A DNA stretch of 60,346 nucleotides, from IMG/VR virus record IMGVR_UViG_3300045988_141393. One strand, 5' to 3'. Shown piece after piece: positions 9,277 to 48,797 of the stretch (position 1 is its first letter; each line of letters starts with the position of its first letter). Source of the stretch: a virus (Duplodnaviria; Heunggongvirae; Uroviricota; Caudoviricetes). The notes beneath the pieces are model-generated. The model was not told the origin of the DNA, ran no database searches, and saw only the letters and a list, made by a program, of their open reading frames with translations. A program made the position numbers and the translations under genes.

Positions 9277-9330
9277 CCTGTGTGTCTACAAAACATCCCA
9301 ATGATCGGAAAATGCTCGTTCGATAATTTG

Positions 9331-9360
9331 TGTTAGAAAATTAATTTGCTGTTTCTAAAT
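9331..9360. promoter_or_regulatory. Inverted pair of the recurrent TGTTAGAAA / TTTCTAAA motif (candidate repressor operator) upstream of the first Icd/Ant module
   Basis: tgttagaaaa (9331..9340) and gtttctaaat (9351..9360) in inverted orientation. Confidence 0.4.
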
Positions 9361-9559
9361 CGGAATGTATGATCTGCATCATCGACTGAAGTCATCCATT
9401 GCTGAAATTTTTAGTTGATCTTCCATGTTTTCAGGCTTATATTCATGCCGTCGTAGCAAATTCTGCGACCAGGTTTGACAGCCTGAATGTTAGTGCGGAC
9501 AACCGCAGATTTCCGATATTGCGGTATTTTTGTGTCCGTAAACCGCGTTACGCCCGAAT

Positions 9560-9689
9560 TATGGTGGGGCGTGATGGGGAGGCTTCGGCCTGCTGGTTTC
9601 ACTAACGCCAGTCTGTCAACCCTGTCACGTCCTGCCACCTGTTTGACAGCGGGTAGCAGGTTGTTAAACCTGTTAGTGAGGCCGTAACT
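9560..9689 (+). ncRNA. Candidate c4-like antisense RNA / structured leader of Icd-Ant module 1
   Basis: Non-coding stretch directly upstream of icd-like ORF with hairpin CAGGTT-gtta-AACCTG, palindrome CTGTTTGACAG and complementary segments CACTAAC / GTTAGTG on the same strand. Confidence 0.3.
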
Positions 9690-9914
9690 ATGGTTAATGC
9701 CAATCCTTGCTCACGTCCTGAATTCATCTGGCGTTTCCACTCCCTGCAAAAACACTGCGATCACTTCGCAATTGCCGCAACCGAAAAAGAAGCCCGTTCT
9801 CTGATCCCTGATCAGCATGGTGTTCTTACTGGTCGTTTCTCTACTTCCCCACAACCAAACACTAATCCCTGGTATCGCAATATTACCAATCCCGGCATTG
9901 CGGAGGCACACTGA
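9690..9914 (+). CDS. icd: Icd-like protein (cell division inhibitor family), copy 1
   Basis: 74 aa; motif EFIWRFHS...AAT-EKEARSL; stop overlaps ATG of downstream Ant-like gene; paralogue at 47297..47512. Confidence 0.5.
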   Translation: MVNANPCSRPEFIWRFHSLQKHCDHFAIAATEKEARSLIPDQHGVLTGRFSTSPQPNTNPWYRNITNPGIAEAH

Positions 9915-10621
9915 TGGATATCTGCATTCTTGAAAAGCCATCAATGACCAGCATTGAGATCGCGGAGCTGGTGGGAAAACGTCATGACAATGTGAAGCGT
10001 ACCATTGAAACATTAGCCGAATCCGGCGTTATTGTTCGTCCTCAAATTGAGGATGAACCAAAAATAGATGTAATGGGGCGTTCTCGATTAATTCAGGTGT
10101 TCCGATTTAGCGACGAGCAAGGCAAACGAGACAGTATCATTGTCGTTGCGCAGCTCTCTCCGGAATTCACCGCCCGGCTGGTGGACCGCTGGCGCGAACT
10201 GGAAGAACAAGTACGCCAGCCGTTGACCGAAATAGAGATGATCGCCGCAATGGCTGCAAATGCAGTTCAGCAGCAAAAGCGGCTTCATGCTGTTGAGTCA
10301 AAGGTTAGCCAGGTCGCTGAAACCGTCGAGCAAATCAAGAAGGGCAATATGCCAGATGGTTACATTGGCTACCGCCAGCTGGCGGCGAAATGCGGCCTGA
10401 CTGAAGCCAAATGTCGCAACCTTGTCAACGCTTACCGGATTCCCACCGATACACATGAGTTTTTAACTCCAGAGGGGGTATTGTCGCGTCGTTCCATCGT
10501 GGCCTTATCTCCCTTCATGAATGCTTTTAACCGGATGATGTCGGAGGCTGAACACCGAGGAAAACGCTGGTATCACCCCAAAATGGGGCAATTCCAGGTG
10601 ATCGGTTGGGGAGGTGAGTGA
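9914..10621 (+). CDS. ant: Antirepressor (Ant / Rha-KilAC type), copy 1
   Basis: 235 aa; N-terminus MTSIEIAELVGKRHDNVKRTIETL; C-terminal block shared nearly verbatim with 47512..48453. Confidence 0.55.
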   Translation: MDICILEKPSMTSIEIAELVGKRHDNVKRTIETLAESGVIVRPQIEDEPKIDVMGRSRLIQVFRFSDEQGKRDSIIVVAQLSPEFTARLVDRWRELEEQVRQPLTEIEMIAAMAANAVQQQKRLHAVESKVSQVAETVEQIKKGNMPDGYIGYRQLAAKCGLTEAKCRNLVNAYRIPTDTHEFLTPEGVLSRRSIVALSPFMNAFNRMMSEAEHRGKRWYHPKMGQFQVIGWGGE

Positions 10622-10818
10622 TGGACATCATGCAGGCGGTAAAAAAAATCAGGGAAGGACAGGCTGAAGTGTGCCGCCGTAAAGCATGGAGTGTTGGTGT
10701 ATGGGCCTGGCCTGATAATTACTCTACTACCGGATGGTTTTGTATTAATGGACTCCAGATCCGGGAAGTTGATTTATCGACGGCTGATATAGTCGGTAAT
10801 GATTGGATCGTGACTTGA
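10618..10818 (+). CDS. DUF2829-like small protein (Tad2-type fold candidate)
   Basis: 66 aa; VCRRKAW ... DIVGNDWIVT; homologous to the C-terminal extension fused to the second Ant copy. Confidence 0.4.
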   Translation: MMDIMQAVKKIREGQAEVCRRKAWSVGVWAWPDNYSTTGWFCINGLQIREVDLSTADIVGNDWIVT

Positions 10819-10826
10819 AGCGTGAT

Positions 10827-10851
10827 GCCCCGGCCTGGCCGGGGCTTTTTT
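10827..10851. terminator. Bidirectional hairpin terminator between convergent genes
   Basis: GCCCCGG-cctgg-CCGGGGC followed by TTTTTT. Confidence 0.5.
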
Positions 10852-11336
10852 CATGCCTCATTAGTTGAGGTTGCTGCGTCTCCGACTGGTAACAGAGCGG
10901 TATTGTGTGGTTCGCCAGCAGGCCAGCGATAGCCAGACACTCTTGATGTTGGGAATGCGCGAATATTAACCGCATCCCCCTGGTTCCCACCCAAGACAAG
11001 CAGATCGCCATTGGCGCGGCGTCCGACAACGAAGCCTACGTGCCCACCGCCTACGCGGGTAAATACAACGATACATCCGTATGCCGGTGTATCTAATTTC
11101 TCGCCCCAATCCAGATAGGATTTTGCCGACTCAAATCTTGTTGAGCGGATGCCTACACGTTCCAGCATTGCACCGACAAATGCTGCGCACCACGGCGTTT
11201 CATCGTCTTTAATTCCGCCGCGCTTGATGTCGCGCCAGAACTGAACGATTTCAGGGTTGTGTTTAGCGCCTTTTATTTCAGTCAGGCCAATGTGCTTACG
11301 GGCTTCAATTAGCCAGCGAGGTTCAATGTTTGCCAT
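10851..11336 (-). CDS. Cell-wall hydrolase-like protein (TIGR02594-type signature)
   Basis: 161 aa; IGLTEIKGAKHNPEIVQFW ... PWCAAFV motif typical of this phage hydrolase family. Confidence 0.5.
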   Translation of the reverse strand: MANIEPRWLIEARKHIGLTEIKGAKHNPEIVQFWRDIKRGGIKDDETPWCAAFVGAMLERVGIRSTRFESAKSYLDWGEKLDTPAYGCIVVFTRVGGGHVGFVVGRRANGDLLVLGGNQGDAVNIRAFPTSRVSGYRWPAGEPHNTALLPVGDAATSTNEA

Positions 11337-11487: not shown

Positions 11488-14400
11488 TTGGACAAACTAC
11501 TTCATTCAATCAGTGAAGCCTCCAGCTTAGGCGAACTGATTGAAATTGTTAGTCGGTTGCATAAATTACGTGCTGTTGCGACCTTTGGCGTCAGGAAAGC
11601 CGATGGCGTCAGTATTCAGAAAACACGCCGGGCAGCAAACAATGCCGCAGTAAATCTTCTTAATTCCCTTCCGCCCGGCTTCGATGGGGCGAAATTAACT
11701 GACGAACAACGTCAGATTCTTGCCGGGTATACCGGTGAAGGCGGCCTGACAGATGGTGAGGGCAGCCAATACGAATACTACACGCCACAGTTTATGGCTG
11801 AAGGTATATGGGATCTGTTTGCTGACTACGGTATTGATGGCGGGCACGTACTGGAACCATCAGCGGGCACAGGTATTTTCCAGGAGACAAAACGGCAGGG
11901 CATGATAATGACCAGCGCCGAACTGTCTCCGATTTCCGGTCGAATAAACCAGCTTTTGCACCCGGAAGACGATGTGAATATCGGGGCGTTTGAGGCGCTG
12001 GCGGCGAAAGACGCAATGTATGATCACGCTGTAGGTAACGTACCGTTTGGTGAAGGGCGTTCCGGTGTCGCCGGGCTTGATCCGGCATATGCAAACGAGA
12101 AGAACGTTGGCAATTACTTTGTGCTGCGCACGATCGACAAGGTTAAGCCTGGTGGGCTTATCGTATTGGTGGTGCCGAATGGCATGACCGATGGTGCGAA
12201 ATATAAAAAATTGCGCGATAAAGTCAGCCGTAAAGCGGAATTTTTGGGCGCACATCGTATGCCTTCTGGTACGTTCAGCGAATCCGGTACAGATACCGTG
12301 GTGGACGTATGGGTATTGCGTAAACACCCGGAAACCTTCCTGGAGATGATCCCCGACACGGATGATTCAACACTCAAATCGGCAAACGTCCTTTGGGATA
12401 CCTTCCTCAAAGGAAAATGGTTTACAACCGAAGGGAAGCGATTTGTTTACGGCGACATGGAACGTACCAGCTTCCGCAATACCCTGGTGGTGAAAAAAGA
12501 CGGTCGTGTATCCAATGAGTCGATGAAAACCGCGCTATCTCGTCGCTTTGATAGTCGCATCAATTGGGATTTGCTCGGCGTAACTACTCAGGCATGGCAG
12601 GGCGCGAAAGTGGGCGATAAACGCCTTGTAGGCGGTATCTGGCATGAGTTTGATGGTCTGAAATGGGTTAAGGACACGACAACCAAATCCTCCGCGCTTG
12701 ATGTAAGTCGATATGGTGTTTCGACGTTTGGCGATCTGCAGATCGCGTTCCAGTCAACAAACGGGATTCTGGCTTTGTCATGGGACCAGATATCGGCGAT
12801 CGCGTCCGACTATCCATCGGTTGTCAGTGATGAAGTGGCAGCAATGATTCGCTTTGCTGGCAAGCAGCGAGAAAAAGACAGGGAGCGCGTTATGCGCGGT
12901 GCGCTGATAGGTCAGTTGATCAACAAGGCACTTGATTTGCGTAACCTGGGTGTGAACGTTGATGACAAACTGGCAGATGCATCCCGCCTGGCGGCAGCAG
13001 AAGTTGCGAAGTATGGACCACCGCACGCCATTAAGCTGAATGGGCTTGCTGAAGCTGGCGCTAAAAACTGGATGACGTTCACTGGCAATGTGAAACAGGA
13101 TGGTTCCACTTCTGACCTTCTGGCAGGGCGACTTGATGTAACGGATGGTGCTGCCGGTATTGACTTTACACGTCCTGAACAAGTGATAGCACATCTTTTC
13201 AGTGATGTAGCCCTTAATCCTATAACGCTGGGAGACTTTCGTGAGGCGTTTGCTGGTGAACTGCCAGAGGACGACGACGCGGCCCTTGAATACCTGGCGA
13301 AATTTGATGATATCGCTATTGATGGGTATGGCTGCCTGCTGCCGATGGACCGCGCCACCAGCGGCGATATTGCAACCAAAACAGCATTGCTGATGGGCTG
13401 GCGTGATGCGTCAACAGGTGAGCAGAAAGCGAACTTTGAGCGTCAGTTGGCGAAAATCGAAGAGAAACGTATTTTCACGCCACTAAATAAAGTCACCGTT
13501 AATCTGAATGCCCGCTGGCTGGATCGCCGCTTGATAAAAGAGTTCCTGGCAGAGCAGGGCTATGACGAGTTTAAGTACACTGAACCTGATCTGAAGGTCG
13601 TCGATGGCATTCTGGTATCTCCGGACGATTACGAAGGTAAGGACGGGGTATTTACCGGCTATCAGCTACGAACCGTAAACGGCAAAAACGGGAATGAGTT
13701 CAAGAAGGCCAACAATAAAGACGGCTTCCTGAACCAGTTAGAAAACTACCTGAACGGTGTTAAACCGCGTGGGCAGAACGCTAACGAGTACCTGGATAAA
13801 ATTGCTCAACTGGAAGTTAGTTTTAACGACTGGTTACGCACTCACCCGCAGGCTGATCAGATAGCCCGCGAGTATAACGACGCATTCAATGGTTTCATTC
13901 CGTTCACGCATTCTGACGCACCGCTTGGCCTGGAAGGGCTTAGTGGAAAGCGCATTCCTCTTACTTATCAGAATGAAGAAGTTCGGCGCTTGTCAGAAGA
14001 TGGGCGCGGCATCATGGGATTTGGTACCGGGCTGGGTAAAACCACGACCGCGCTTGCGCTTGAGGCGTATAACTTCGAAACAGGTCGCACTAAACGCACG
14101 TGTATTGTTGTTCCGAAGGCGGTTTATCAGAACTGGTATCACGAGGCACAGAGTTTCTACAGTGCTGATGCCTTCGCCAATATGATGTTTATCGGTTTGG
14201 ATGAAGTTCGTGATGACAGCGGAAATATTCTGACCGCGCCGGTGCTTGATGAAAATGGCGAACCACGCCTCGACAGTAACGGGCAGCCTCTTACCAGAAA
14301 TGTTGTGAAAGAGTCCGCCAGCGCCGTTATCGTTCAGCGCATGAACATGATCCCGTCGTCAAATTGGCGAACGGTCATCATGACAAAAGAACAATTCGCG

Positions 14401-17400
14401 TCTATCCCGCTACGAGAAAAAACCATCGAGGAGAACTCACAGCAAGCTGTCTTTAATGCTGTGGAAATGGGGCGTCTTGACCTGGCGTCCGGTAAACACC
14501 GTGATGCGCAGAAGAAGAACAAGATTAAGGATCAGGCCGCGAATACCGGTACAACGAAGAAGCAGAATATCCCGTACTTTGAGGATATGAACTTCGATAG
14601 CGTGATTGCCGACGAGGGGCATAACTACCGCAACTCCTTTAATGCCGGGCGTGAAGCGGGACAACTGGCATATTTGCCTAACCCGGCAGTATCCAAGATG
14701 GCCCGCGACATGGCTGTAAAAGCTGCGTACATGATGAAACGCAACAACGGGCGTGGTGTAGTCATGCTGACGGCAACTCCGCTGGTGAACAGTCCGATTG
14801 ATGCCTTCAACATGCTGTCTACTGTCATTCCGCAGGAAGAGTGGATGCGCATGGGCATCATTACGCCTGATGATTTCGTTCGTGTGTTTGGCAAAACAGC
14901 CACAGTTCAGGTCCAGAAAATTTCCGGGGAAGTGGAAGAGAAGCAGGGGCTGGTGGGCTTCCAGAACCTTGACGGCCTGCGTGGTATTTTCCATCGTTGG
15001 ACCACTCTGAAGACTGCTGCAGATGTCGGAGCAACGGTTAAAATTCCCGACATCATTGAGAACACCTTGCAGATCCCGATGACAGGGGAGCAGGAGACTG
15101 CTTATGAAGAGCTTCGTAAGCGTGCTCAGGAGTTAAGTCGCAATGATGAGCTGACAGTCGATGAAAACGGGCATATCACTAACGACAAACCGGATGATTT
15201 CATCTTCTCCATCATCCGTGACATGGACAAGGTTGCTATAGACCCGGATCTGTATGCCAGTGCGATTACATTCCAGTTCCCCGTTGAGCTTGCAGACCAG
15301 GTAAAAGCTATTGCTGATGCCTTGCCAAAAGTAGCTGGCGGTAAAGTGGCAGATGATGTTGATGAGGCCGAGGAAGACGGCGCTGGCGGGCTGGTCAGTA
15401 CGCGTACCAGCAAGGTAGTGAAGACCGCTTTTAGTGAACATCCGACGCATGTTGAAATACGTGCCAGCATTGAACTGGAAGCTGAAATACTTAAGGCCAT
15501 TGCGGCTGCCGGTATTGATATGCAGCAGGTATCGCACCCCATCCCGCCGAAGTATGCCGCGCTGATCGAAAATCTTCGTGAAGGTCTGAAGAACGGTAAG
15601 CAGATCGTCTTTATTGATGAAAAAGCCCAGCACCAGAAGCTGCGCCGTATTATCGCCAGTGCACTGCAAATGCCGGAGCAGGAGATTGGCATTATCAATG
15701 CGACGACAGTTAGCCAGGCTGGCGGCATCAAGCTGAAGAAGGTGAATAAGCCGACCGAACCTACTCCAAACAAAAACGGTGAATACAAAGAAGGGGCATG
15801 GGAAACCTACTACAGCAAACTTGCCCAATATGAGGATTATCTCTCAGCCAAAAATGATGCTGGCCTTGAGGGCATGGAAGGTATTGCCGCCGACTATAAC
15901 GAAGGTCGCACGCGCATCATAATCTGTAACAAGAAGGCTGAAGTAGGTATTAACCTGCACATCGGGACAACCGATATCCACCACCTGACACTACCCTGGA
16001 CACCAGCCAGTATCGACCAACGAAATGGGCGCGGTGCGCGCGTAGGTTCACCGCAAGAGAAGGTCAATGTTCACTACTATTGTGGCAAAGGCACATTCGA
16101 CGACTTCCGTCTGGATACGCTGAAACGTAAGAAAGACTGGATCAAGATGGTGATGACCTCCGACATGTCAGAGATCGCCAATGGTGATGCGGATGATGCT
16201 GATGAACGCGCCATTATGCTGGCGGCAAACCCGGAAGAACGCCGCGCAATCATGGCTCGCCAGGCTCAAGAGCGTGAAGAACGTCTGAAACTGAAAGCAC
16301 AGCGCGAGGCCAACAATGCTCTCGATATCTACCTGAAAGCGGCAAACGCCGCCGGAAAAGATATCGGCATGATGGAGACAGAACTGAAAAGCGCGATGGA
16401 ACAGATAGAGTATTACCAGCGCAATCTTGACGACCTGATAAAAGCGGGTACGAACAGGAATGGGCAAAAATACGCGCTTGAGCAGTTGAGTAGCTACAGA
16501 AAACGTGCGCGGGTGCTGAAGTTTGCGATCACCAGGGCAAAAGACGCGGATACCATAATGAAACGCTCTCGTGGTGATGTGGAGCGCGCTATTAAGTCTG
16601 GTGTGCTGGATATCAGTATCGATGTTATTCAGAACCCACAGGAATATATGCGCACTGACAAGAATATCCTGTTGCATAAAGGTAGTTATTACCGTGCAGT
16701 CATTGATGATCGCGAAACAACAGCGATTGTCCGGGTGGAAAAAATTGACGGTGAAAAAGCACAATACATCTGCCGTATCGCCTGGCTGGATAGAGCAAGT
16801 CGTTACGCTCGATCACCGGGGTCAATCGTTACATTGCCGTTTGACTCTGTGATTGAAGCGGTAACTTTTGAAGAGGGGGTAGCTGAATCGCGCGCAACGG
16901 CTGCGCGTGGTGTTCAGTGCCACCAGCTATCAACGTCACTTACTCGCGATCAGTTCTATGATGCTATTCGTAACGGAGTAATGAAGGTCACTACAGGCCA
17001 GCCTGGTAGAGCATGGGGCGGTGAACCAGGTATTAAATACTGGGCCTATCGCACCGATGATGGTCAGATCGCGCTGTCATCGACCTATGATGGCATGATA
17101 GGACAGAAAATCGGGCGTACATCGGATATTGCACCAGAGCAGTGGATTTACCCTGATATCAACAATGAGGCGCTGAAGCGTGAAGTGGCAAAAATACAAG
17201 CCAGTGATAATCCGCTGAATATCGTGGACGGAGAGGGATTCCTCCAGGCATTGTATGGGTATGATTACATCCAGGGAATGCAGGCATGGGGCGCACAAGC
17301 AACGATGGATGATGTTGCCCAGGAGTTCGAAAACTGGATGGCTGGGCGTGGTCTGTCAGGTCGCTCGCTTAATAAAGTCACTTCTGAAGATATTCTTAGC

Positions 17401-18324
17401 TTGTTCCGCAAACCGTCCGGAGAAGGTCTGGAATCATTCTGGAGGACCGTGCTGGCATACCGTTTATTCCAGGGCAGGATGAAAGCCTTTAGCAATATCG
17501 ATGATATTGAACGGATGTTTAATCAGGTCAAGATAGCGAAAATTAAGACGAAGATCGAAAAAACACGTTCTGCGCTGGTGGCCTGGCGCGATGCATTGTT
17601 TGAGCAATATAAATCACTCAGTGATGCAGATGGATGGGCGGCATTGGAACAGCTGGCGAATAATGGGGTAGATGGAGCGAAACTCGCCATTGTTCAGGCT
17701 GATAACCCCCTGGAATCACCGGCAGCACAGTGGATTAAGGTGGGGGCTGTCATCAATGCATTTGATGAAAAATACATTAGTAAGGACGATTTTGCTGATG
17801 CTGTTTCTGTTAATCGCCTGGTAGAAATGGCTACCCGCCGCGCCCGTGAGTTGAAAGACGGCGACTATGTGAATGAGTTGCCGGATACGCTCAAATCGGC
17901 AACGTGGCAGGACTATGTATCGCTGAAAAACGGCGGGGCCACTGAATCAGAGATCGCGGAAAGGCTTGAGCAGGCTGAAAGCAAAAGAGAAGAGCAGGCG
18001 GCAGTGGCTGAAGCCAGAGCTGATGAAGCGGCGAATGATGACTATATCATTGTGGTTAATGATAAGCCGATTCGCGCTAAGGCGCGTGTTCGCGGGCGCT
18101 GGTGGAGCGTCAGCGAGGACGTTGGCGCGGTTTATCTCATTGCCGACCAACCAGGTTCCTCGACAATACGGAACGCCAAAGACGCGATTAAGAAGATTGG
18201 CGGGCGTTTCTGGAATTTTGAAGCAAACCCGGTTGCTGATGTGAACTTTGACCGTCCTGCATGGATGGTATCTACGCGTTACTCGGTAGATGAACTGCGT
18301 AAAATAATCGCCGATGCGGCCTAA
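11488..18324 (+). CDS. darB: DarB-like giant antirestriction protein (N6-adenine methyltransferase + SF2 helicase domains)
   Basis: 2278 aa single ORF (TTG start after GAGGGGGA RBS); methyltransferase motif GNVPFG; helicase motifs GFGTGLGKTTTA, DEGHNYRN, QRNGRGAR; size and architecture match P1 DarB (about 2255 aa). Confidence 0.7.
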   Translation: MDKLLHSISEASSLGELIEIVSRLHKLRAVATFGVRKADGVSIQKTRRAANNAAVNLLNSLPPGFDGAKLTDEQRQILAGYTGEGGLTDGEGSQYEYYTPQFMAEGIWDLFADYGIDGGHVLEPSAGTGIFQETKRQGMIMTSAELSPISGRINQLLHPEDDVNIGAFEALAAKDAMYDHAVGNVPFGEGRSGVAGLDPAYANEKNVGNYFVLRTIDKVKPGGLIVLVVPNGMTDGAKYKKLRDKVSRKAEFLGAHRMPSGTFSESGTDTVVDVWVLRKHPETFLEMIPDTDDSTLKSANVLWDTFLKGKWFTTEGKRFVYGDMERTSFRNTLVVKKDGRVSNESMKTALSRRFDSRINWDLLGVTTQAWQGAKVGDKRLVGGIWHEFDGLKWVKDTTTKSSALDVSRYGVSTFGDLQIAFQSTNGILALSWDQISAIASDYPSVVSDEVAAMIRFAGKQREKDRERVMRGALIGQLINKALDLRNLGVNVDDKLADASRLAAAEVAKYGPPHAIKLNGLAEAGAKNWMTFTGNVKQDGSTSDLLAGRLDVTDGAAGIDFTRPEQVIAHLFSDVALNPITLGDFREAFAGELPEDDDAALEYLAKFDDIAIDGYGCLLPMDRATSGDIATKTALLMGWRDASTGEQKANFERQLAKIEEKRIFTPLNKVTVNLNARWLDRRLIKEFLAEQGYDEFKYTEPDLKVVDGILVSPDDYEGKDGVFTGYQLRTVNGKNGNEFKKANNKDGFLNQLENYLNGVKPRGQNANEYLDKIAQLEVSFNDWLRTHPQADQIAREYNDAFNGFIPFTHSDAPLGLEGLSGKRIPLTYQNEEVRRLSEDGRGIMGFGTGLGKTTTALALEAYNFETGRTKRTCIVVPKAVYQNWYHEAQSFYSADAFANMMFIGLDEVRDDSGNILTAPVLDENGEPRLDSNGQPLTRNVVKESASAVIVQRMNMIPSSNWRTVIMTKEQFASIPLREKTIEENSQQAVFNAVEMGRLDLASGKHRDAQKKNKIKDQAANTGTTKKQNIPYFEDMNFDSVIADEGHNYRNSFNAGREAGQLAYLPNPAVSKMARDMAVKAAYMMKRNNGRGVVMLTATPLVNSPIDAFNMLSTVIPQEEWMRMGIITPDDFVRVFGKTATVQVQKISGEVEEKQGLVGFQNLDGLRGIFHRWTTLKTAADVGATVKIPDIIENTLQIPMTGEQETAYEELRKRAQELSRNDELTVDENGHITNDKPDDFIFSIIRDMDKVAIDPDLYASAITFQFPVELADQVKAIADALPKVAGGKVADDVDEAEEDGAGGLVSTRTSKVVKTAFSEHPTHVEIRASIELEAEILKAIAAAGIDMQQVSHPIPPKYAALIENLREGLKNGKQIVFIDEKAQHQKLRRIIASALQMPEQEIGIINATTVSQAGGIKLKKVNKPTEPTPNKNGEYKEGAWETYYSKLAQYEDYLSAKNDAGLEGMEGIAADYNEGRTRIIICNKKAEVGINLHIGTTDIHHLTLPWTPASIDQRNGRGARVGSPQEKVNVHYYCGKGTFDDFRLDTLKRKKDWIKMVMTSDMSEIANGDADDADERAIMLAANPEERRAIMARQAQEREERLKLKAQREANNALDIYLKAANAAGKDIGMMETELKSAMEQIEYYQRNLDDLIKAGTNRNGQKYALEQLSSYRKRARVLKFAITRAKDADTIMKRSRGDVERAIKSGVLDISIDVIQNPQEYMRTDKNILLHKGSYYRAVIDDRETTAIVRVEKIDGEKAQYICRIAWLDRASRYARSPGSIVTLPFDSVIEAVTFEEGVAESRATAARGVQCHQLSTSLTRDQFYDAIRNGVMKVTTGQPGRAWGGEPGIKYWAYRTDDGQIALSSTYDGMIGQKIGRTSDIAPEQWIYPDINNEALKREVAKIQASDNPLNIVDGEGFLQALYGYDYIQGMQAWGAQATMDDVAQEFENWMAGRGLSGRSLNKVTSEDILSLFRKPSGEGLESFWRTVLAYRLFQGRMKAFSNIDDIERMFNQVKIAKIKTKIEKTRSALVAWRDALFEQYKSLSDADGWAALEQLANNGVDGAKLAIVQADNPLESPAAQWIKVGAVINAFDEKYISKDDFADAVSVNRLVEMATRRARELKDGDYVNELPDTLKSATWQDYVSLKNGGATESEIAERLEQAESKREEQAAVAEARADEAANDDYIIVVNDKPIRAKARVRGRWWSVSEDVGAVYLIADQPGSSTIRNAKDAIKKIGGRFWNFEANPVADVNFDRPAWMVSTRYSVDELRKIIADAA

Positions 18325-22755: not shown

Positions 22756-22832
22756 GATGGTGTAGCTCAGTAGGATAGAGCAGCAGCCTTCTAAGCTGTC
22801 GGTCGGTGGTTCGAATCCACCCACCATCGCCA
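22756..22832 (+). tRNA. tRNA-Arg (anticodon UCU)
   Basis: Manual cloverleaf: acceptor GATGGTG/CACCATC, D GCTC/GAGC, anticodon loop CUUCUAA, T-loop TTCGAAT, 3' CCA encoded. Confidence 0.8.
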
Positions 22833-22837
22833 ATTTA

Positions 22838-22924
22838 GGGGAGTTAGTCCGTAGGGGTAGCGGGGTAGACTGTAAATCTACTGTCATTGCGACTCGGGTG
22901 GTTCGACTCCATCACTCCCCACCA
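22838..22924 (+). tRNA. tRNA-Tyr (anticodon GUA), long variable arm
   Basis: Acceptor GGGGAGT/ACTCCCC, anticodon stem GTAGA/TCTAC with loop CTGTAAA, T-loop TTCGACT, CCA encoded. Confidence 0.7.
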
Positions 22925-22928
22925 AATT

Positions 22929-23004
22929 GCCGGTTTAGCTCAGTTGGTAGAGCGCCTGCCTTGTAAGCAGGATGTCAGCGGTTCGAGTCCGTTAACCGGC
23001 ACCA
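22929..23004 (+). tRNA. tRNA-Thr (anticodon UGU)
   Basis: Acceptor GCCGGTT/AACCGGC, anticodon stem CCTGC/GCAGG loop CTTGTAA, T-loop TTCGAGT, CCA encoded. Confidence 0.8.
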
Positions 23005-24955: not shown

Positions 24956-25031
24956 GGCCCTTTAGCTCAGTGGTTAGAGCTGGCGACTCATAATCGCACG
25001 GTCACCGGTTCAAGTCCGGTAGGGGCCACCA
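24956..25031 (+). tRNA. tRNA with CAU anticodon (Ile2 lysidine-type or elongator Met)
   Basis: Acceptor GGCCCTT/AGGGGCC, anticodon loop CTCATAA, T-loop TTCAAGT, CCA encoded; resembles enterobacterial ileX-type tRNA. Confidence 0.7.
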
Positions 25032-29850: not shown

Positions 29851-30888
29851 TTACCAGAGCTTCGCGGCGTACTGCGTTTGGGGGAATGTGTATCCGTAAC
29901 GTTCTTCGATTGCTTTGCCGTATTTTTTACGAGCTTCATTCAGTTTAATGCCGGTCAGGTCGTCTCCAGAGGCCATCATTACGTCTAACAATTCCAGATC
30001 CATTTTATCCAGCCTTGCCATTGCTTCACGTGATGTACGTATCTTACGTTCAATGATATGGCGAATAGCCGGATCGGCATCCTCCAGCATCTTAGCGGAT
30101 TTCTGCTTAAGGCTTTCATTGCGAATATCGATGTTCCTTAAGATGTACGACTTCGCAACGTAGCTTGGCTGGTGTTTTTCCAGGTCACGAACACGATATA
30201 AGTTAAAATCGCCGAGAAGGCTGCAAGGTACCGATTCGACGCCAGAATAAATTGTAATGCTCCGGCGTTCACCAACATTATTGACAACGGGGATCGTTGT
30301 CTTCGGTAGTCTTGCGAAAACCAATGCGCCATGTGCGCCAACTCTAAAGCGAGAAAGGGCATTGCTGCCTTCGATGTTTGTTGTCAGCACAACATCTGTA
30401 TATGCCTCTTTACGCGCCCGGTAGATCTCGCCTTCAGGCTCAGCTTCAAAGAAGCGCTGTTCTTCTTCAAGAGCACCTACGATTTGAGAAAAAACCCTAT
30501 TTTTCAGGCTTTTCTTTATGATTTTGTCGTATTTTTTTAGCAATTGTTCACGTGTAAATGTACGTGTTGTTGTAGCGCTTTGCACAACGACATGCGTGCT
30601 TTGATTGGTGTCCTCAATGATGAATGGGATCGGAGAATATACAGACTCAACAATGTTCGACGCTTTGCCGTCGGCATCGCGGCACATGTCAACGAAGGCT
30701 TTCCATTCAGCAAGACATTTTTCAGCTTCTTCTAATATGTTTTGGTCATGCGTTAATGCAACATGGCGGAATTCCTCGCCAGCATAACTGGTATCATGGA
30801 AAACAGAGTTTGCGACCACCAGCTCTTTCCACCGTTCAGCGGTTTGCAGGAACCGTTTGTACTCTTTCTCGATCGACTTCTTACTCAT
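29851..30888 (-). CDS. Hypothetical protein in the immunity-repressor (C1) position
   Basis: 345 aa, AGGA RBS; lies between terminase genes and lox-Cre as c1 does in P1; recurrent operator-like motif 20 bp upstream of its start; identity not verified. Confidence 0.3.
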   Translation of the reverse strand: MSKKSIEKEYKRFLQTAERWKELVVANSVFHDTSYAGEEFRHVALTHDQNILEEAEKCLAEWKAFVDMCRDADGKASNIVESVYSPIPFIIEDTNQSTHVVVQSATTTRTFTREQLLKKYDKIIKKSLKNRVFSQIVGALEEEQRFFEAEPEGEIYRARKEAYTDVVLTTNIEGSNALSRFRVGAHGALVFARLPKTTIPVVNNVGERRSITIYSGVESVPCSLLGDFNLYRVRDLEKHQPSYVAKSYILRNIDIRNESLKQKSAKMLEDADPAIRHIIERKIRTSREAMARLDKMDLELLDVMMASGDDLTGIKLNEARKKYGKAIEERYGYTFPQTQYAAKLW

Positions 30889-33707: not shown

Positions 33708-34370
33708 ATGGCCAGCACTTTTCAGGTGTTCCCCAAATACAAATGCCACAGCATCATTCGGGCATCGAAAATCAAAGATATTGTTATTGTCGGCAAAGCT
33801 TATGCGCCAATTTTTGGCAGCATCGAAGTCGTGGAGCCAAAAGGAATGACGCTTCGTGTTGATGGTGTGTTCTTGGAAAAGTTCCGACCGCAAATAGGAG
33901 GATATCTCGTCACTGCTGAAAATGGTTATCTGGTCTATGTGCCAGAGAAAGCATTTGAAAAATGCTATAGCCGGGTTAACGACGCCTCCGAAAATGGGGT
34001 ATCGCTCAGCATTGAAGGTCACAATGGGGTGACATTCATTACAGCCAGGGACGTAACTATTTCTGCTGGCGGTATCGCTACTCTACAAGAAGAAATCGAC
34101 CTTGAAGCAGCCGACTTTTCTGACGCGCTGATGTGGATGAAGGATGGCAAGAAAGTTGCTCGACGCGGGTGGAACGGCGAAGACCAATTCTGCTGGCTGG
34201 TTCCTGAAGGACAGTACCCGGCACGAATGGAAGCCATTAAGGGATATTTCCCCGGCGACCTCGTTCCGTATGGTGCTTATTTCGCCTTAAAAAATGCACA
34301 AGGTGTAGTTGTTCCGTGGGTGCCTTCAGTTGGCGACCTGCTGGCCTGTGACTGGTTTGTTGTGGAGTGA
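33708..34370 (+). CDS. Protein with C-terminal DUF2829-like domain (Tad2-type candidate)
   Basis: 220 aa; ALMWMKDGKKVARRGWNG ... LLACDWFVVE. Confidence 0.45.
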   Translation: MASTFQVFPKYKCHSIIRASKIKDIVIVGKAYAPIFGSIEVVEPKGMTLRVDGVFLEKFRPQIGGYLVTAENGYLVYVPEKAFEKCYSRVNDASENGVSLSIEGHNGVTFITARDVTISAGGIATLQEEIDLEAADFSDALMWMKDGKKVARRGWNGEDQFCWLVPEGQYPARMEAIKGYFPGDLVPYGAYFALKNAQGVVVPWVPSVGDLLACDWFVVE

Positions 34371-46816: not shown

Positions 46817-46984
46817 ATGACCGTTCGCTACCTCAACTTTCAAATCCAGAACATCACTGGCGGTTGCTATGACTGGTTTGTCGCTCTCGGAAAAGAAGTG
46901 ATCACCGGGAAGCTGGATGAAGTGAAAGCTAAAGCAATGGCCTACGCCTGCAAGCAAGCCCGGAAGAAATCCGCCAAAGCATAA
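46817..46984 (+). CDS. Small hypothetical protein; not in ORF track
   Basis: 55 aa read by eye (MTVRYLNFQIQNITGGCYDWFVALGKEV...), followed by hairpins and terminator. Confidence 0.25.
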   Translation: MTVRYLNFQIQNITGGCYDWFVALGKEVITGKLDEVKAKAMAYACKQARKKSAKA

Positions 46985-47087
46985 AATACTGACTGTTGCG
47001 CCCTGGCATTATCGTGGGGTATATTTCTACGGCACCTTAGAAAAACGGGTGCCGGGATTGGAACCCCGGATAATGCAAAAGGCGACA

Positions 47088-47111
47088 CAGACGCCGAAAG
47101 CGTCTTTTTTT
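47088..47111 (+). terminator. Rho-independent terminator
   Basis: GACGC-cgaaa-GCGTC followed by TTTTTTT. Confidence 0.55.
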
Positions 47112-47149
47112 GTGTCATGCCATCGCACAGCCATACGTAGCGTTTAGCT

Positions 47150-47296
47150 CAGAGATCAATGGTAGTGCTGGCTGGGCTGCCGAAAGGCAGGCCGGTTCCC
47201 TTTTGCGCCGGTAGTTCCAACCCAGTCAGTGCTACCGCCATTGAGATTGGAACCTCACGCGGTAGCTCCTTAAATTAGCAAAAGGAGGCTGCCATT
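47150..47296 (+). ncRNA. Candidate c4-like antisense RNA / structured leader of Icd-Ant module 2
   Basis: Interleaved complementary segments GTTCCAA / TTGGAAC and GCTACCGC / GCGGTAGC upstream of the icd-like start. Confidence 0.3.
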
Positions 47297-47512
47297 ATGG
47301 CTACTACCCCTACCCCAACTCATTCTGAATTTATCTGGCGTTTCTATTCCTGCCAAAAACACCTGTATATCTGCGTCATGGCTGCAACCGAAGCAGAAGC
47401 GCGCTCATACCTTCCCGAAGAACCCTGCATTTTTGCTGCTCGCTTCACTCTTGATGCGATGGAGATCCTCAATTACTGGAATCTGCCAATGAACTGCGTG
47501 GAGGTGCACTGA
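47297..47512 (+). CDS. icd: Icd-like protein, copy 2
   Basis: 71 aa; EFIWRFYS ... AAT-EAEARSYLP; same stop/start overlap with downstream Ant. Confidence 0.5.
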   Translation: MATTPTPTHSEFIWRFYSCQKHLYICVMAATEAEARSYLPEEPCIFAARFTLDAMEILNYWNLPMNCVEVH

Positions 47513-48453
47513 TGAATCTGTCCATCTCTCAAAAAGCGACAATGACCAGTATTGAGATCGCGGAACTGGTAGGAAGTCGCCCAGATAGTGTGAAGAGAAC
47601 TATCGAAACACTGGCTAAAAAGAGTGTGATCCAATTTCCACAATCTGTGGAAATTGAAAATAAACAATCAGTTGGCCCTCGTCGATTTTCCAAGGCTTAC
47701 ATCTTTGAAGGCGAACAAGGCAAGCGTGACAGTATCATTGTCGTCGCACAGCTTTCTCCCGAATTTACCGCCCGGCTGGTGGACCGCTGGCGCGAACTGG
47801 AGAATGCCCGGGTACAGTTAAAATCAAAAGCCGAAATTCTGGCTGAAATGGCGCAAATGCATCTTGAGCATGAACGCCGGATCAACGCCGTTAATGCCCA
47901 GGTAGCCGAAGTATCGGCACAAGTGTCCAAAGTCGCTGAAACCGTCGAGCAAATCAAGAAAGGCAATATGCCGGAAGGCTACATTGGCTACCGCCAGCTG
48001 GCGGCGAAATGTGGCCTGACTGAAGCCAAATGCCGCAACCTTGTCAACGCTTACCGGATTCCCACCGATACGCATGAGTTTTTAACTCCAGATGGTTTGC
48101 TTGCGAGACGCTCCATTGTGGCCCTGGCCCCCTTCCGGAAAGCCTTTAAGCAGGTGATGTCGGAGGCAGAACCACGCAATAAACGCTGGTATCATCCAAA
48201 GATGGGGATGTTTCAGGCAATCCACCATCCTGTGCCTGAAAGCCCAAAGGATAATCTGTCACTACATACCGTCAGAGAGAAGATCAGGACTGGATACGCA
48301 ACAGTGTGTCGTCGTTCTTCCTGGCCTGAAGGTATATGGGTGTGGCCCGAAGGTGGATCACGAAAGCACTGGCGCACTATCCGGGACGGGAAAATCCATG
48401 CTATTGATTTAGCGCCAGAGGATATTGTTGCTACGGACTGGATTGTTAGTTAA
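47512..48453 (+). CDS. ant: Antirepressor (Ant) fused to C-terminal DUF2829-like domain, copy 2
   Basis: 313 aa; Ant blocks shared with copy 1; residues from about 255 onward carry VCRRSSW ... DIVATDWIVS. Confidence 0.55.
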   Translation: MNLSISQKATMTSIEIAELVGSRPDSVKRTIETLAKKSVIQFPQSVEIENKQSVGPRRFSKAYIFEGEQGKRDSIIVVAQLSPEFTARLVDRWRELENARVQLKSKAEILAEMAQMHLEHERRINAVNAQVAEVSAQVSKVAETVEQIKKGNMPEGYIGYRQLAAKCGLTEAKCRNLVNAYRIPTDTHEFLTPDGLLARRSIVALAPFRKAFKQVMSEAEPRNKRWYHPKMGMFQAIHHPVPESPKDNLSLHTVREKIRTGYATVCRRSSWPEGIWVWPEGGSRKHWRTIRDGKIHAIDLAPEDIVATDWIVS

Positions 48454-48462
48454 TTACTGTTG

Positions 48463-48483
48463 CCCCGGCCTGTCCGGGGCTTT
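48463..48483 (+). terminator. Rho-independent terminator
   Basis: GCCCCGG-cctgt-CCGGGGC followed by TTT. Confidence 0.5.
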
Positions 48484-48512
48484 AACTACTAAATAACCGG
48501 ATTCTCCGCACG

Positions 48513-48797
48513 ATGAAGAAAATAGATTTCACTTACTCTGCTGCCACAATCCAGCGACGTTTCCGTCTCATAAGGGAAGTGGAACTATCAAAAAACTGGT
48601 ATCAAATTCTACTGGATGAAGAGTTTTCACTGATGGTTATAGCAGAAAAATTGGCTATGCCGAATGACCGGCACAAGGTCATAGCCAGCCTGGATCTGGT
48701 GACAAACAGATACTGGGAATCCGAGGAACTACTTGAAGTTGGCTTGATACGCGAGATGATAGAACAGGCTGTTCCCCTCCACTTACAGCAACCATAA
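48513..48797 (+). CDS. Hypothetical protein
   Basis: 94 aa ORF. Confidence 0.3.
   Translation: MKKIDFTYSAATIQRRFRLIREVELSKNWYQILLDEEFSLMVIAEKLAMPNDRHKVIASLDLVTNRYWESEELLEVGLIREMIEQAVPLHLQQP

Follow-up and report, generated by a model that had tools for sequence, protein, structure and literature searches.

Two C4 Antisense RNA Modules of the Immunity I Type in a D6-like Plasmid Prophage

Introduction

The immunity I (immI) region of phages P1 and P7 is an operon (c4-icd-ant1/ant2) in which a promoter is followed by the target sites a1 and b1, a processed C4 antisense RNA, a further pair of target sites, a2 and b2, lying over the ribosome-binding site of icd, and an antirepressor gene that is coupled to icd. 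In P1, RNase P releases C4, which builds up as a stable RNA species of ~77 nucleotides (nt). Here we describe two modules of this type in a DNA stretch of 60,346 nt, the IMG/VR virus record IMGVR_UViG_3300045988_141393 (the whole stretch is referred to as the window), which DNA comparison with phage D6, P1, P7 and plasmids has identified as a D6-like plasmid prophage of the P1 type. We consider it highly probable that the two modules act as independent switches of the P1 immunity I type within one element, in each of which a C4 antisense RNA silences an antirepressor.

A related organization has been described for the Salmonella prophage Gifsy-1 (isrK - STnc1160/orf45 - anrP), in which isrK precedes C4 as in the leader of module 2, and the short, terminated IsrK RNA carries a1 and b1. 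IsrK binds Hfq, and acting in trans it has been found to switch on translation of the antirepressor AnrP and prophage induction, activities shown for Gifsy-1 alone; Ant expression needs the translation of an upstream open reading frame (ORF) (PMC4825925). The same study likens the IsrK locus to the P4 CI RNA and does not name 'phage P1' at all. The arrangement of two modules is already known for the phage group considered here, as a D6-like plasmid has been reported to contain an ImmI-related region together with another stretch that shows homology to the antisense RNA and to icd (PMC6799933). Likewise, an additional ant insertion between pacB and c1 has been described for P1-like plasmids such as RCS47 (PMC6906374).

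Two Leaders With C4 RNAs and Matching Target Sites

The leaders of both modules have matched the Rfam C4 family (gathering score 45 bits) over the full length of the covariance model (Table 1). The C4 RNA of module 1 folds into an outer stem, two hairpins and a single-stranded junction, and its recognition segments are CUGUCAA (a') and UCACUAAC (b'). It agrees in every base with the 77-nt c4 RNA annotated for P1, and thus with an RNA whose excision is established, and none of its four targets, a1, b1, a2 and b2, differs from the corresponding site in the P1 annotation. By analogy, the mature RNA of module 1 would likewise comprise 77 nt (9562-9638). The -10 element of the module-1 promoter aligns with the -10 annotated for P1c4 in the P1 record, and this promoter is the positional equivalent of P1c4/P51b. 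In module 2, the corresponding segments are GUUCCAA in the junction (a') and CCUUUUGC in the loop (b'). Exact complements of 7-8 nt to the respective C4 have been found at four sites per module in a conserved order, and the odds of finding them at all four sites amount to ~1e-10 per module, as a rough estimate for stretches of ~100 nt. The E-values of the covariance model, taken together with these complements, exclude chance. The initial annotation had described leaders rich in mutually complementary segments, as expected for a c4-type antisense RNA, and this has been borne out, as both C4 matches are full-length and above threshold and are flanked on either side by exact complements of a' and b', with b2 lying over the icd ribosome-binding site. 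It had further placed the stop codon of an Icd-like ORF over the ATG of ant in both modules; indeed, the motif TGATG is found twice (9912-9916 and 47510-47514), closing ORFs of 74 and 71 amino acids (aa), and the stop of ant1 overlaps the ATG of the next small ORF likewise.

A complementarity search of both leaders has yielded no complement to a' or b' of either C4 in the leader of the other module. As the two recognition sequences are unrelated, the two circuits should be orthogonal, and the dual immunity specificity contemplated earlier for this element fits these data. Pairing has been judged by exact complementarity of the exposed C4 segments; whole-molecule RNAduplex energies, obtained for each C4 against each leader, have been dismissed as non-discriminating, since they ignore intramolecular structure.

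Both Icd-like products exceed the cutoff (25 bits) of NF033153 (phage_ICD_like, 'host cell division inhibitor Icd-like'). Identity amounts to 45% between the two of them and to 61% between Icd1 and P1 Icd. The two antirepressors share 67% identity over 238 aa, and the counterpart of ant1 is annotated as an anti-repressor in D6. While Ant1 passes the Pfam Rha cutoff, Ant2 stays just under it (26.5 against 29.9 bits), and its close homologue P0004 reaches 36.9 bits; a KilAC/ANT domain has not been found in either protein at E<0.01 in Pfam. From the label 'Rha/KilAC-type' given to them in the initial annotation, the Rha part has therefore been retained, firmly for Ant1 and marginally for Ant2, and the KilAC part dropped. 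Its description of diverged Icd and Ant N-termini next to almost identical Ant C-termini has to be corrected, as the divergence of the Ants is patchy and does not follow a simple division into N- and C-terminal parts. The DNA of the two modules is 50-65% identical and considerably more similar in some patches. One patch of 120 nt in ant1/ant2 (10331-10450 versus 47950-48069) shows 93-97% nucleotide identity, for which gene conversion between the two paralogous genes or a strong constraint on this segment may be responsible.

Recognition Alleles and Covariation

The diversity of the recognition code has been surveyed in 92 C4 copies, derived from 80 IMG/VR loci encoding Icd2 relatives plus named phages and plasmids (including the window, P1, P7, D6, RCS47, JL22, 673R5, two Stx-type phages and phiP27). 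Segments a' and b' have been taken from alignment columns, as loops extracted automatically from single-sequence minimum-free-energy folds failed for several RNAs owing to spurious in-loop pairs. Thirteen a'/b' combinations occur among the 92 loci. The four targets change in step in the majority of these combinations, among them all alleles of the P1/D6 and the window type. The 673R5-type allele is an apparent exception that pairs via G-U wobbles, as read directly in locus L007, and b1 is partly matched or unmatched in two Stx-phage alleles and in phiP27. In the consensus fold of 11 diverse C4 homologues the outer stem and both hairpins are kept, 13 of the 25 pairs showing compensatory changes.

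The window and D6 also differ in their specificity alleles. In module 1 of D6, b' is UCGUAAGU versus the P1 code UCACUAAC of the window, and in module 2 of D6, a' is GUCUCAA versus GUUCCAA; in both cases the targets are compensated (D6 loci L001, 3259-3344, and L002, 3256-3343, have been compared with the two C4 loci of Table 1). Such compensated changes of a'/b' and targets argue that selection maintains the pairing. Recoding of a'/b' between alleles, with targets that compensate, is the principle of P1-versus-P7 heteroimmunity, which acts here at both loci. Consequently, heteroimmunity between D6 and the window element, otherwise 94-95% identical, is predicted for either locus. The code of module 1 is exactly that of P1, and the one of module 2 belongs to the IsrK/lambdoid lineage.

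Related Modules and a Portable Leader

Escherichia phage D6 and D6-like plasmid prophages such as pYU39_89 represent the same type of element, with 94-95% DNA identity across both modules. D6 is 94.1% identical to the window over the full length of 9300-11000 and 95.3% over 46900-48600, whereas the matches of P1 (93%) and P7 (89%) within 9300-11000 are limited to 9430-9801. Both icd-ant pairs are annotated in the D6 record (orf19/orf18/orf17 and orf83/orf82), in which the C4 RNAs are unannotated. Minus-strand ORFs lying over the leaders (D6 orf84 and its equivalents in the window) have been set aside as probable non-genes; they have no Pfam or NCBIfam match.

In the P1-like plasmids RCS47, JL22, vB_EcoM-673R5 and pTZ20_1P, a second ant module is located between pacB and c1, beside the resident immI, so that these elements have two modules as well. 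The pacB-c1 insertion has been identified here as an isrK-C4-icd-ant module, whose leader (isrK, C4 and icd) is 87-95% identical to module 2, except for the 673R5 copy with 69.5%. It adjoins c1, whereas module 2 adjoins ref/pmgF, and the second ant of RCS47, with 371 aa, is unrelated to Ant2 in BLASTP. The same isrK and C4 leader type is found in lambdoid Stx phages and in phiP27, and Stx-phage records annotate adjacent isrK and C4 RNAs. Homology to P1 stops within icd1 (~9801) and that to RCS47 and JL22 within icd2 (~47445), which suggests that icd contains a junction of recurrent recombination. The cargo behind the same RNA cassette has been found to be unrelated in BLASTP, both for Ant1 compared with P1 Ant1 and for Ant2 compared with the RCS47 second ant and Gifsy-1 AnrP. 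As homology ends in icd and the cargo differs, the leader and the N-terminal half of icd behave as a portable regulatory cassette.

In Gifsy-1 (locus L093, 34131-34329, minus strand), the Rfam models for C4, isrK and c4-a1b1 all match the isrK-anrP leader, with C4 immediately 3' of isrK. With numbering from the first nucleotide of the Rfam isrK match, which has been taken as the 5' end of IsrK, a1 (TTGGCGT) occupies nt 26-32 and a' (ACGCCAA) nt 158-164. The compensatory mutant pairs G28/C162 and G31/C159 reported for this locus (PMC4825925, Table 1D), when counted on the Gifsy-1 sequence, are a1:a' base pairs of the C4 RNA. The Gifsy-1 locus differs from the modules of the window in that icd is missing and the coupling ORF, orf45, overlaps C4 itself. 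A positional equivalent of orf45 exists in module 2, where a 39-aa ORF on C4 (47159-47278, plus strand) passes the Pfam family PF10554 Phage_ASH with 33 bits (cutoff 26) and is labeled 'ash family protein' by PGAP in near-identical plasmids. It has been rejected as a component of module 2, being probably a protein call on an RNA gene, and the Phage_ASH family may largely represent the translation of this RNA gene.

A Probable Tad2-like Domain Attached to the Antirepressors

Both modules differ from P1 in a Tad2-like ORF or domain behind Ant, besides the difference in number, as P1 has one module and the window two. In module 1 it is a separate protein of 65 aa, Orf66, which is 47% identical to residues 256-313 of Ant2; in Ant2, residues 254-312 match phrog_7385. 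Orf66 falls below the Pfam cutoff of PF11195 (15.1 versus 25 bits) and the Ant2 C-terminus is unmatched, but the relatives P0008 (37.4 bits) and P0005 (23.9 bits) on the Tad2-like model link the family transitively. With 8 representatives among 1.84 billion proteins the family of Orf66 is tiny. Orf66 itself is conserved, its cluster comprising 165 member sequences. In a profile search against PDB sequences, AcrIIA7 has been matched weakly, with both signature motifs conserved. The predicted fold of Orf66 has the elements of Tad2, a helix at the N-terminus and then an antiparallel sheet of five strands, and matches the sponge proteins ModTad2 and AcrIIA7 (PF11195) best; Foldseek has returned no match for the Tad2-like part of the window. 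Tad2 forms a homotetramer whose pockets sequester gcADPR or other immune nucleotides. In comparison with the 89-aa Tad2 of SPO1, the loops that form the dimer interface and the ligand pocket are shortened in Orf66, and unlike Tad2 and AcrIIA7, the version in the window is linked or fused to an antirepressor. With moderate confidence, Orf66 and the Ant2 C-terminus may accordingly be described as a minimal Tad2-like fold. A strong C-terminal Tad2-like domain (79.5 bits) is present in a separate protein of 220 aa (33708-34370, plus strand), which corresponds to D6 orf114, a 'DUF2829 domain-containing protein'.

One may speculate that the domain attached to the antirepressors binds host immune signaling nucleotides and thereby ties the lysis-lysogeny switch to abortive-infection signaling, a proposal to which we give little credence. 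If it were true, the antisense-locked operons could supply a signal sponge before any other product upon derepression; alternatively, the antirepressor could sense the alarm of host Thoeris or CBASS systems and the prophage could escape. Two orthogonal C4 codes would then represent two independently releasable triggers.

Proposed Switch and Alternative Readings

By analogy with P1, we propose that each leader would be transcribed constitutively in the order a1, b1, a tRNA-like C4 of ~77-80 nt, a2, b2, icd and the icd-coupled ant, and that C4 would be excised from this transcript. Its segments a' in the junction and b' in the loop of the second hairpin would pair with a2 and b2 and mask the ribosome-binding site of icd. 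Without translation of icd, the coupled ant would not be translated either, and the prophage repressor would remain active; in P1, transcription is moreover terminated prematurely. The upstream copy a1/b1 would compete for C4. In module 2, this segment would be a separate, short terminated RNA of the IsrK type that releases the block in trans, for which Gifsy-1 offers an experimental precedent of an anti-antisense activator. An intrinsic terminator follows a1/b1 of module 2, and both a short RNA and a read-through mRNA are therefore expected. We infer expression, processing, repression in vivo and an action of the Ant proteins on the C1 homologue that the element encodes at 29851-30888 on the minus strand.

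Several observations weigh against this proposal. The P1 C1-operator consensus (ATTGCTCTAATAAATTT) has given 0 matches in the window at <=3 mismatches, and control by a C1 of the P1 type has been dropped. A de novo k-mer scan of the window has instead detected a dispersed asymmetric 15-mer, TGTTAGAAAAYTAAT, at 12 sites (<=2 mismatches) versus 0.35 expected; copies directly precede repL, the c1 homologue, ref and the leader of module 1. By analogy with the Op sites of P1, it probably is the operator of a D6-type C1 repressor. This candidate operator, though, is found 70 nt 5' of the promoter of module 1 and ~550 nt 5' of module 2, so that C1 control of either leader can be regarded as a candidate only. 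The window antirepressors are of the Rha/Roi type and show no significant similarity to P1 Ant1 (BLASTP, E 0.23), although both belong to phrog_63 'anti-repressor Ant'; binding of Ant to the C1 homologue is therefore assumed. The gene order is also unlike that of P1, with repL upstream of module 1 instead of kilA-repL after ant, no kilA, and no in-frame Ant2 form.

The most serious competitor, possible but in our judgment rather unlikely, takes module 2 as an inducible circuit of the IsrK type with another output than a second lock on the element's own repressor. Ant2 would target the repressors of other resident prophages or host and defence functions, and the IsrK-like RNA would be a stress-responsive activator as in Gifsy-1. 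The leader of module 2 is indeed not of the P1 a1b1 type but of the isrK and C4 type known from Gifsy-1, phiP27 and the lambdoid Stx phages, it belongs to a cassette that is joined to unrelated cargo in RCS47 and Gifsy-1, no candidate C1 operator has been found close to its promoter in the 15-mer scan, and the activation of AnrP translation and prophage induction by IsrK in trans agrees with this view. A shared target is nonetheless most likely for two antirepressors that are 67% identical and have a nearly identical central block, and the equivalent second module of P1-like plasmids adjoins c1, which fits a role in own immunity. It is improbable that the operons are mainly early anti-defence loci, in which the Tad2-like domain would sequester immune nucleotides and the antisense RNA would merely silence it in the lysogen. 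The sub-threshold Pfam score of Orf66, the unmatched Ant2 C-terminus, the absence of a Foldseek match, the shortened pocket and dimer loops and the small family size argue against such a function, and a strong Tad2-like protein is already encoded elsewhere in the element. The idea of the initial annotation that one copy was recruited for anti-defence through its fused DUF2829 domain is not favoured, since both modules carry the domain.

That one of the modules is a redundant, decaying and functionless duplicate is a very improbable explanation. The modules are paralogous, and the frame of Ant and Tad2-like domain is split in module 1 relative to module 2, as decay would have it; all ORFs are intact with coupled stop and start codons, however, the eight RNA target sites are perfect, and the split Orf66 is itself conserved. 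Both modules are kept in D6 and in ~95 plasmids at >=80% coverage, and compensated allele changes in both require selection on pairing. The notion that the leaders are ordinary structured 5' untranslated regions with fortuitous complementarity is already refuted and has practically no probability left, given full-length covariance matches (E 1e-11 to 1e-13), the identity of the module-1 RNA with P1 c4, and the co-variation of loops and targets in trans across 13 alleles. Two separate immunity I-type switches stay the preferred explanation.

Genomic Context and Feature Coordinates

The initial 25 kb of the window are 99.8% identical to ~92-kb plasmids of E. coli and Salmonella. Compared with the D6 annotation, the window contains homologues of repL, darB, c1, cre and ref and a tRNA cluster, to which four tRNA genes correspond (22756-22829, 22838-22921, 22929-23001 and 24956-25028, plus strand). 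Just 3' of module 1, a 161-aa CHAP-domain protein (Pfam CHAP, 31.4 bits) is encoded on the minus strand (10851-11336); RefSeq labels its D6 counterpart 'baseplate hub subunit and tail lysozyme'. It is followed by the gene of a DarB-like helicase/methylase of 2278 aa (11488-18324, plus strand).

Table 1. Features of the two modules and sites of the dispersed 15-mer, with positions in the window.
Feature	Position	Strand	Evidence
Candidate D6-type C1 operator (TGTTAGAAAATTAAT) 5' of module 1	9331..9345	+	copy of dispersed 15-mer; candidate role by analogy with P1 Op sites
Sigma-70-like promoter, module 1 (TTGATC-17-TATATT)	9415..9443	+	promoter scan; consensus match only
Upstream C4 target element, module 1	9437..9489	+	Rfam RF03163 c4-a1b1, 54.4 bits (threshold 46.7)
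a1 (TTGACAG), module 1	9475-9481	+	within RF03163 match; exact complement of a'
b1 (GTTAGTG), module 1	9489-9495	+	starts at last RF03163 base, 6 nt past range; exact complement of b'
C4 antisense RNA, module 1	9557..9642	+	Rfam RF01695, 68.8 bits, E 2.7e-11, full-length model
a2 (TTGACAG), module 1	9643-9649	+	exact complement of a'
b2 (GTTAGTGA), module 1	9672-9679	+	exact complement of b'; runs into GAGG Shine-Dalgarno of icd1
icd1, Icd-like ORF, 74 aa	9690..9914	+	NF033153, 40.3 bits; phrog_1426
ant1, Rha-type antirepressor, 235 aa	9914..10621	+	Pfam Phage_pRha, 37.5 bits (cutoff 29.9); phrog_63, E 3.5e-47
Small ORF (Orf66), 65 aa, predicted divergent Tad2-like (DUF2829) fold	10621..10818 (start also given as 10618)	+	ATG overlaps ant1 stop
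Intrinsic-terminator-like hairpin closing module-1 operon	10827..10855	+	8 G-C pairs, then TTTTTT
IsrK-type leader RNA, module 2	47032..47110	+	Rfam RF01394 isrK, 62.5 bits (threshold 50)
a1 (TTGGAAC), module 2	47058-47064	+	exact complement of a'
b1 (GCAAAAGG), module 2	47075-47082	+	exact complement of b'
Terminator hairpin in isrK-type leader	47089-47105	+	terminator scan; seven T after hairpin
C4 antisense RNA, module 2	47155..47242	+	Rfam RF01695, 76.7 bits, E 2.9e-13, full-length model
a2 (TTGGAAC), module 2	47247-47253	+	exact complement of a'
b2 (GCAAAAGG), module 2	47278-47285	+	exact complement of b'; runs into AAGGAGG Shine-Dalgarno, 9 nt 5' of icd2 ATG
icd2, Icd-like ORF, 71 aa	47297..47512	+	NF033153, 49.5 bits; phrog_1426
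ant2, Rha-type antirepressor, 313 aa, with fused C-terminal Tad2-like domain (~48259-48453)	47512..48453	+	phrog_63, E 1e-61
15-mer sites (start positions)	8126, 9331, 20275, 21524, 26469, 30902		
15-mer sites (start positions, remainder)	32312, 42746, 42761, 45829, 46481, 50252		

Implications for Phage-Plasmid Immunity

The c4-icd-ant system is the textbook case of phage immunity by antisense RNA, and its recognition code sets which plasmids of the P1 type exclude or tolerate each other; such phage-plasmids commonly carry resistance genes in E. coli and Salmonella. To the two-module arrangement, the present analysis adds that a D6 backbone carries the exact P1 code; it also collects 13 specificity alleles in a catalogue, assigns the Gifsy-1 IsrK mutants to a1:a', and shows a recurring link of antirepressors with a split or fused, minimal Tad2-like domain. 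While the current understanding of these systems is unchanged, the RNA cassette emerges as a portable regulator that has been joined to differing cargo proteins, and the exact P1 code together with a second code of the IsrK type predicts the cross-immunity of the window element with P1-like elements.

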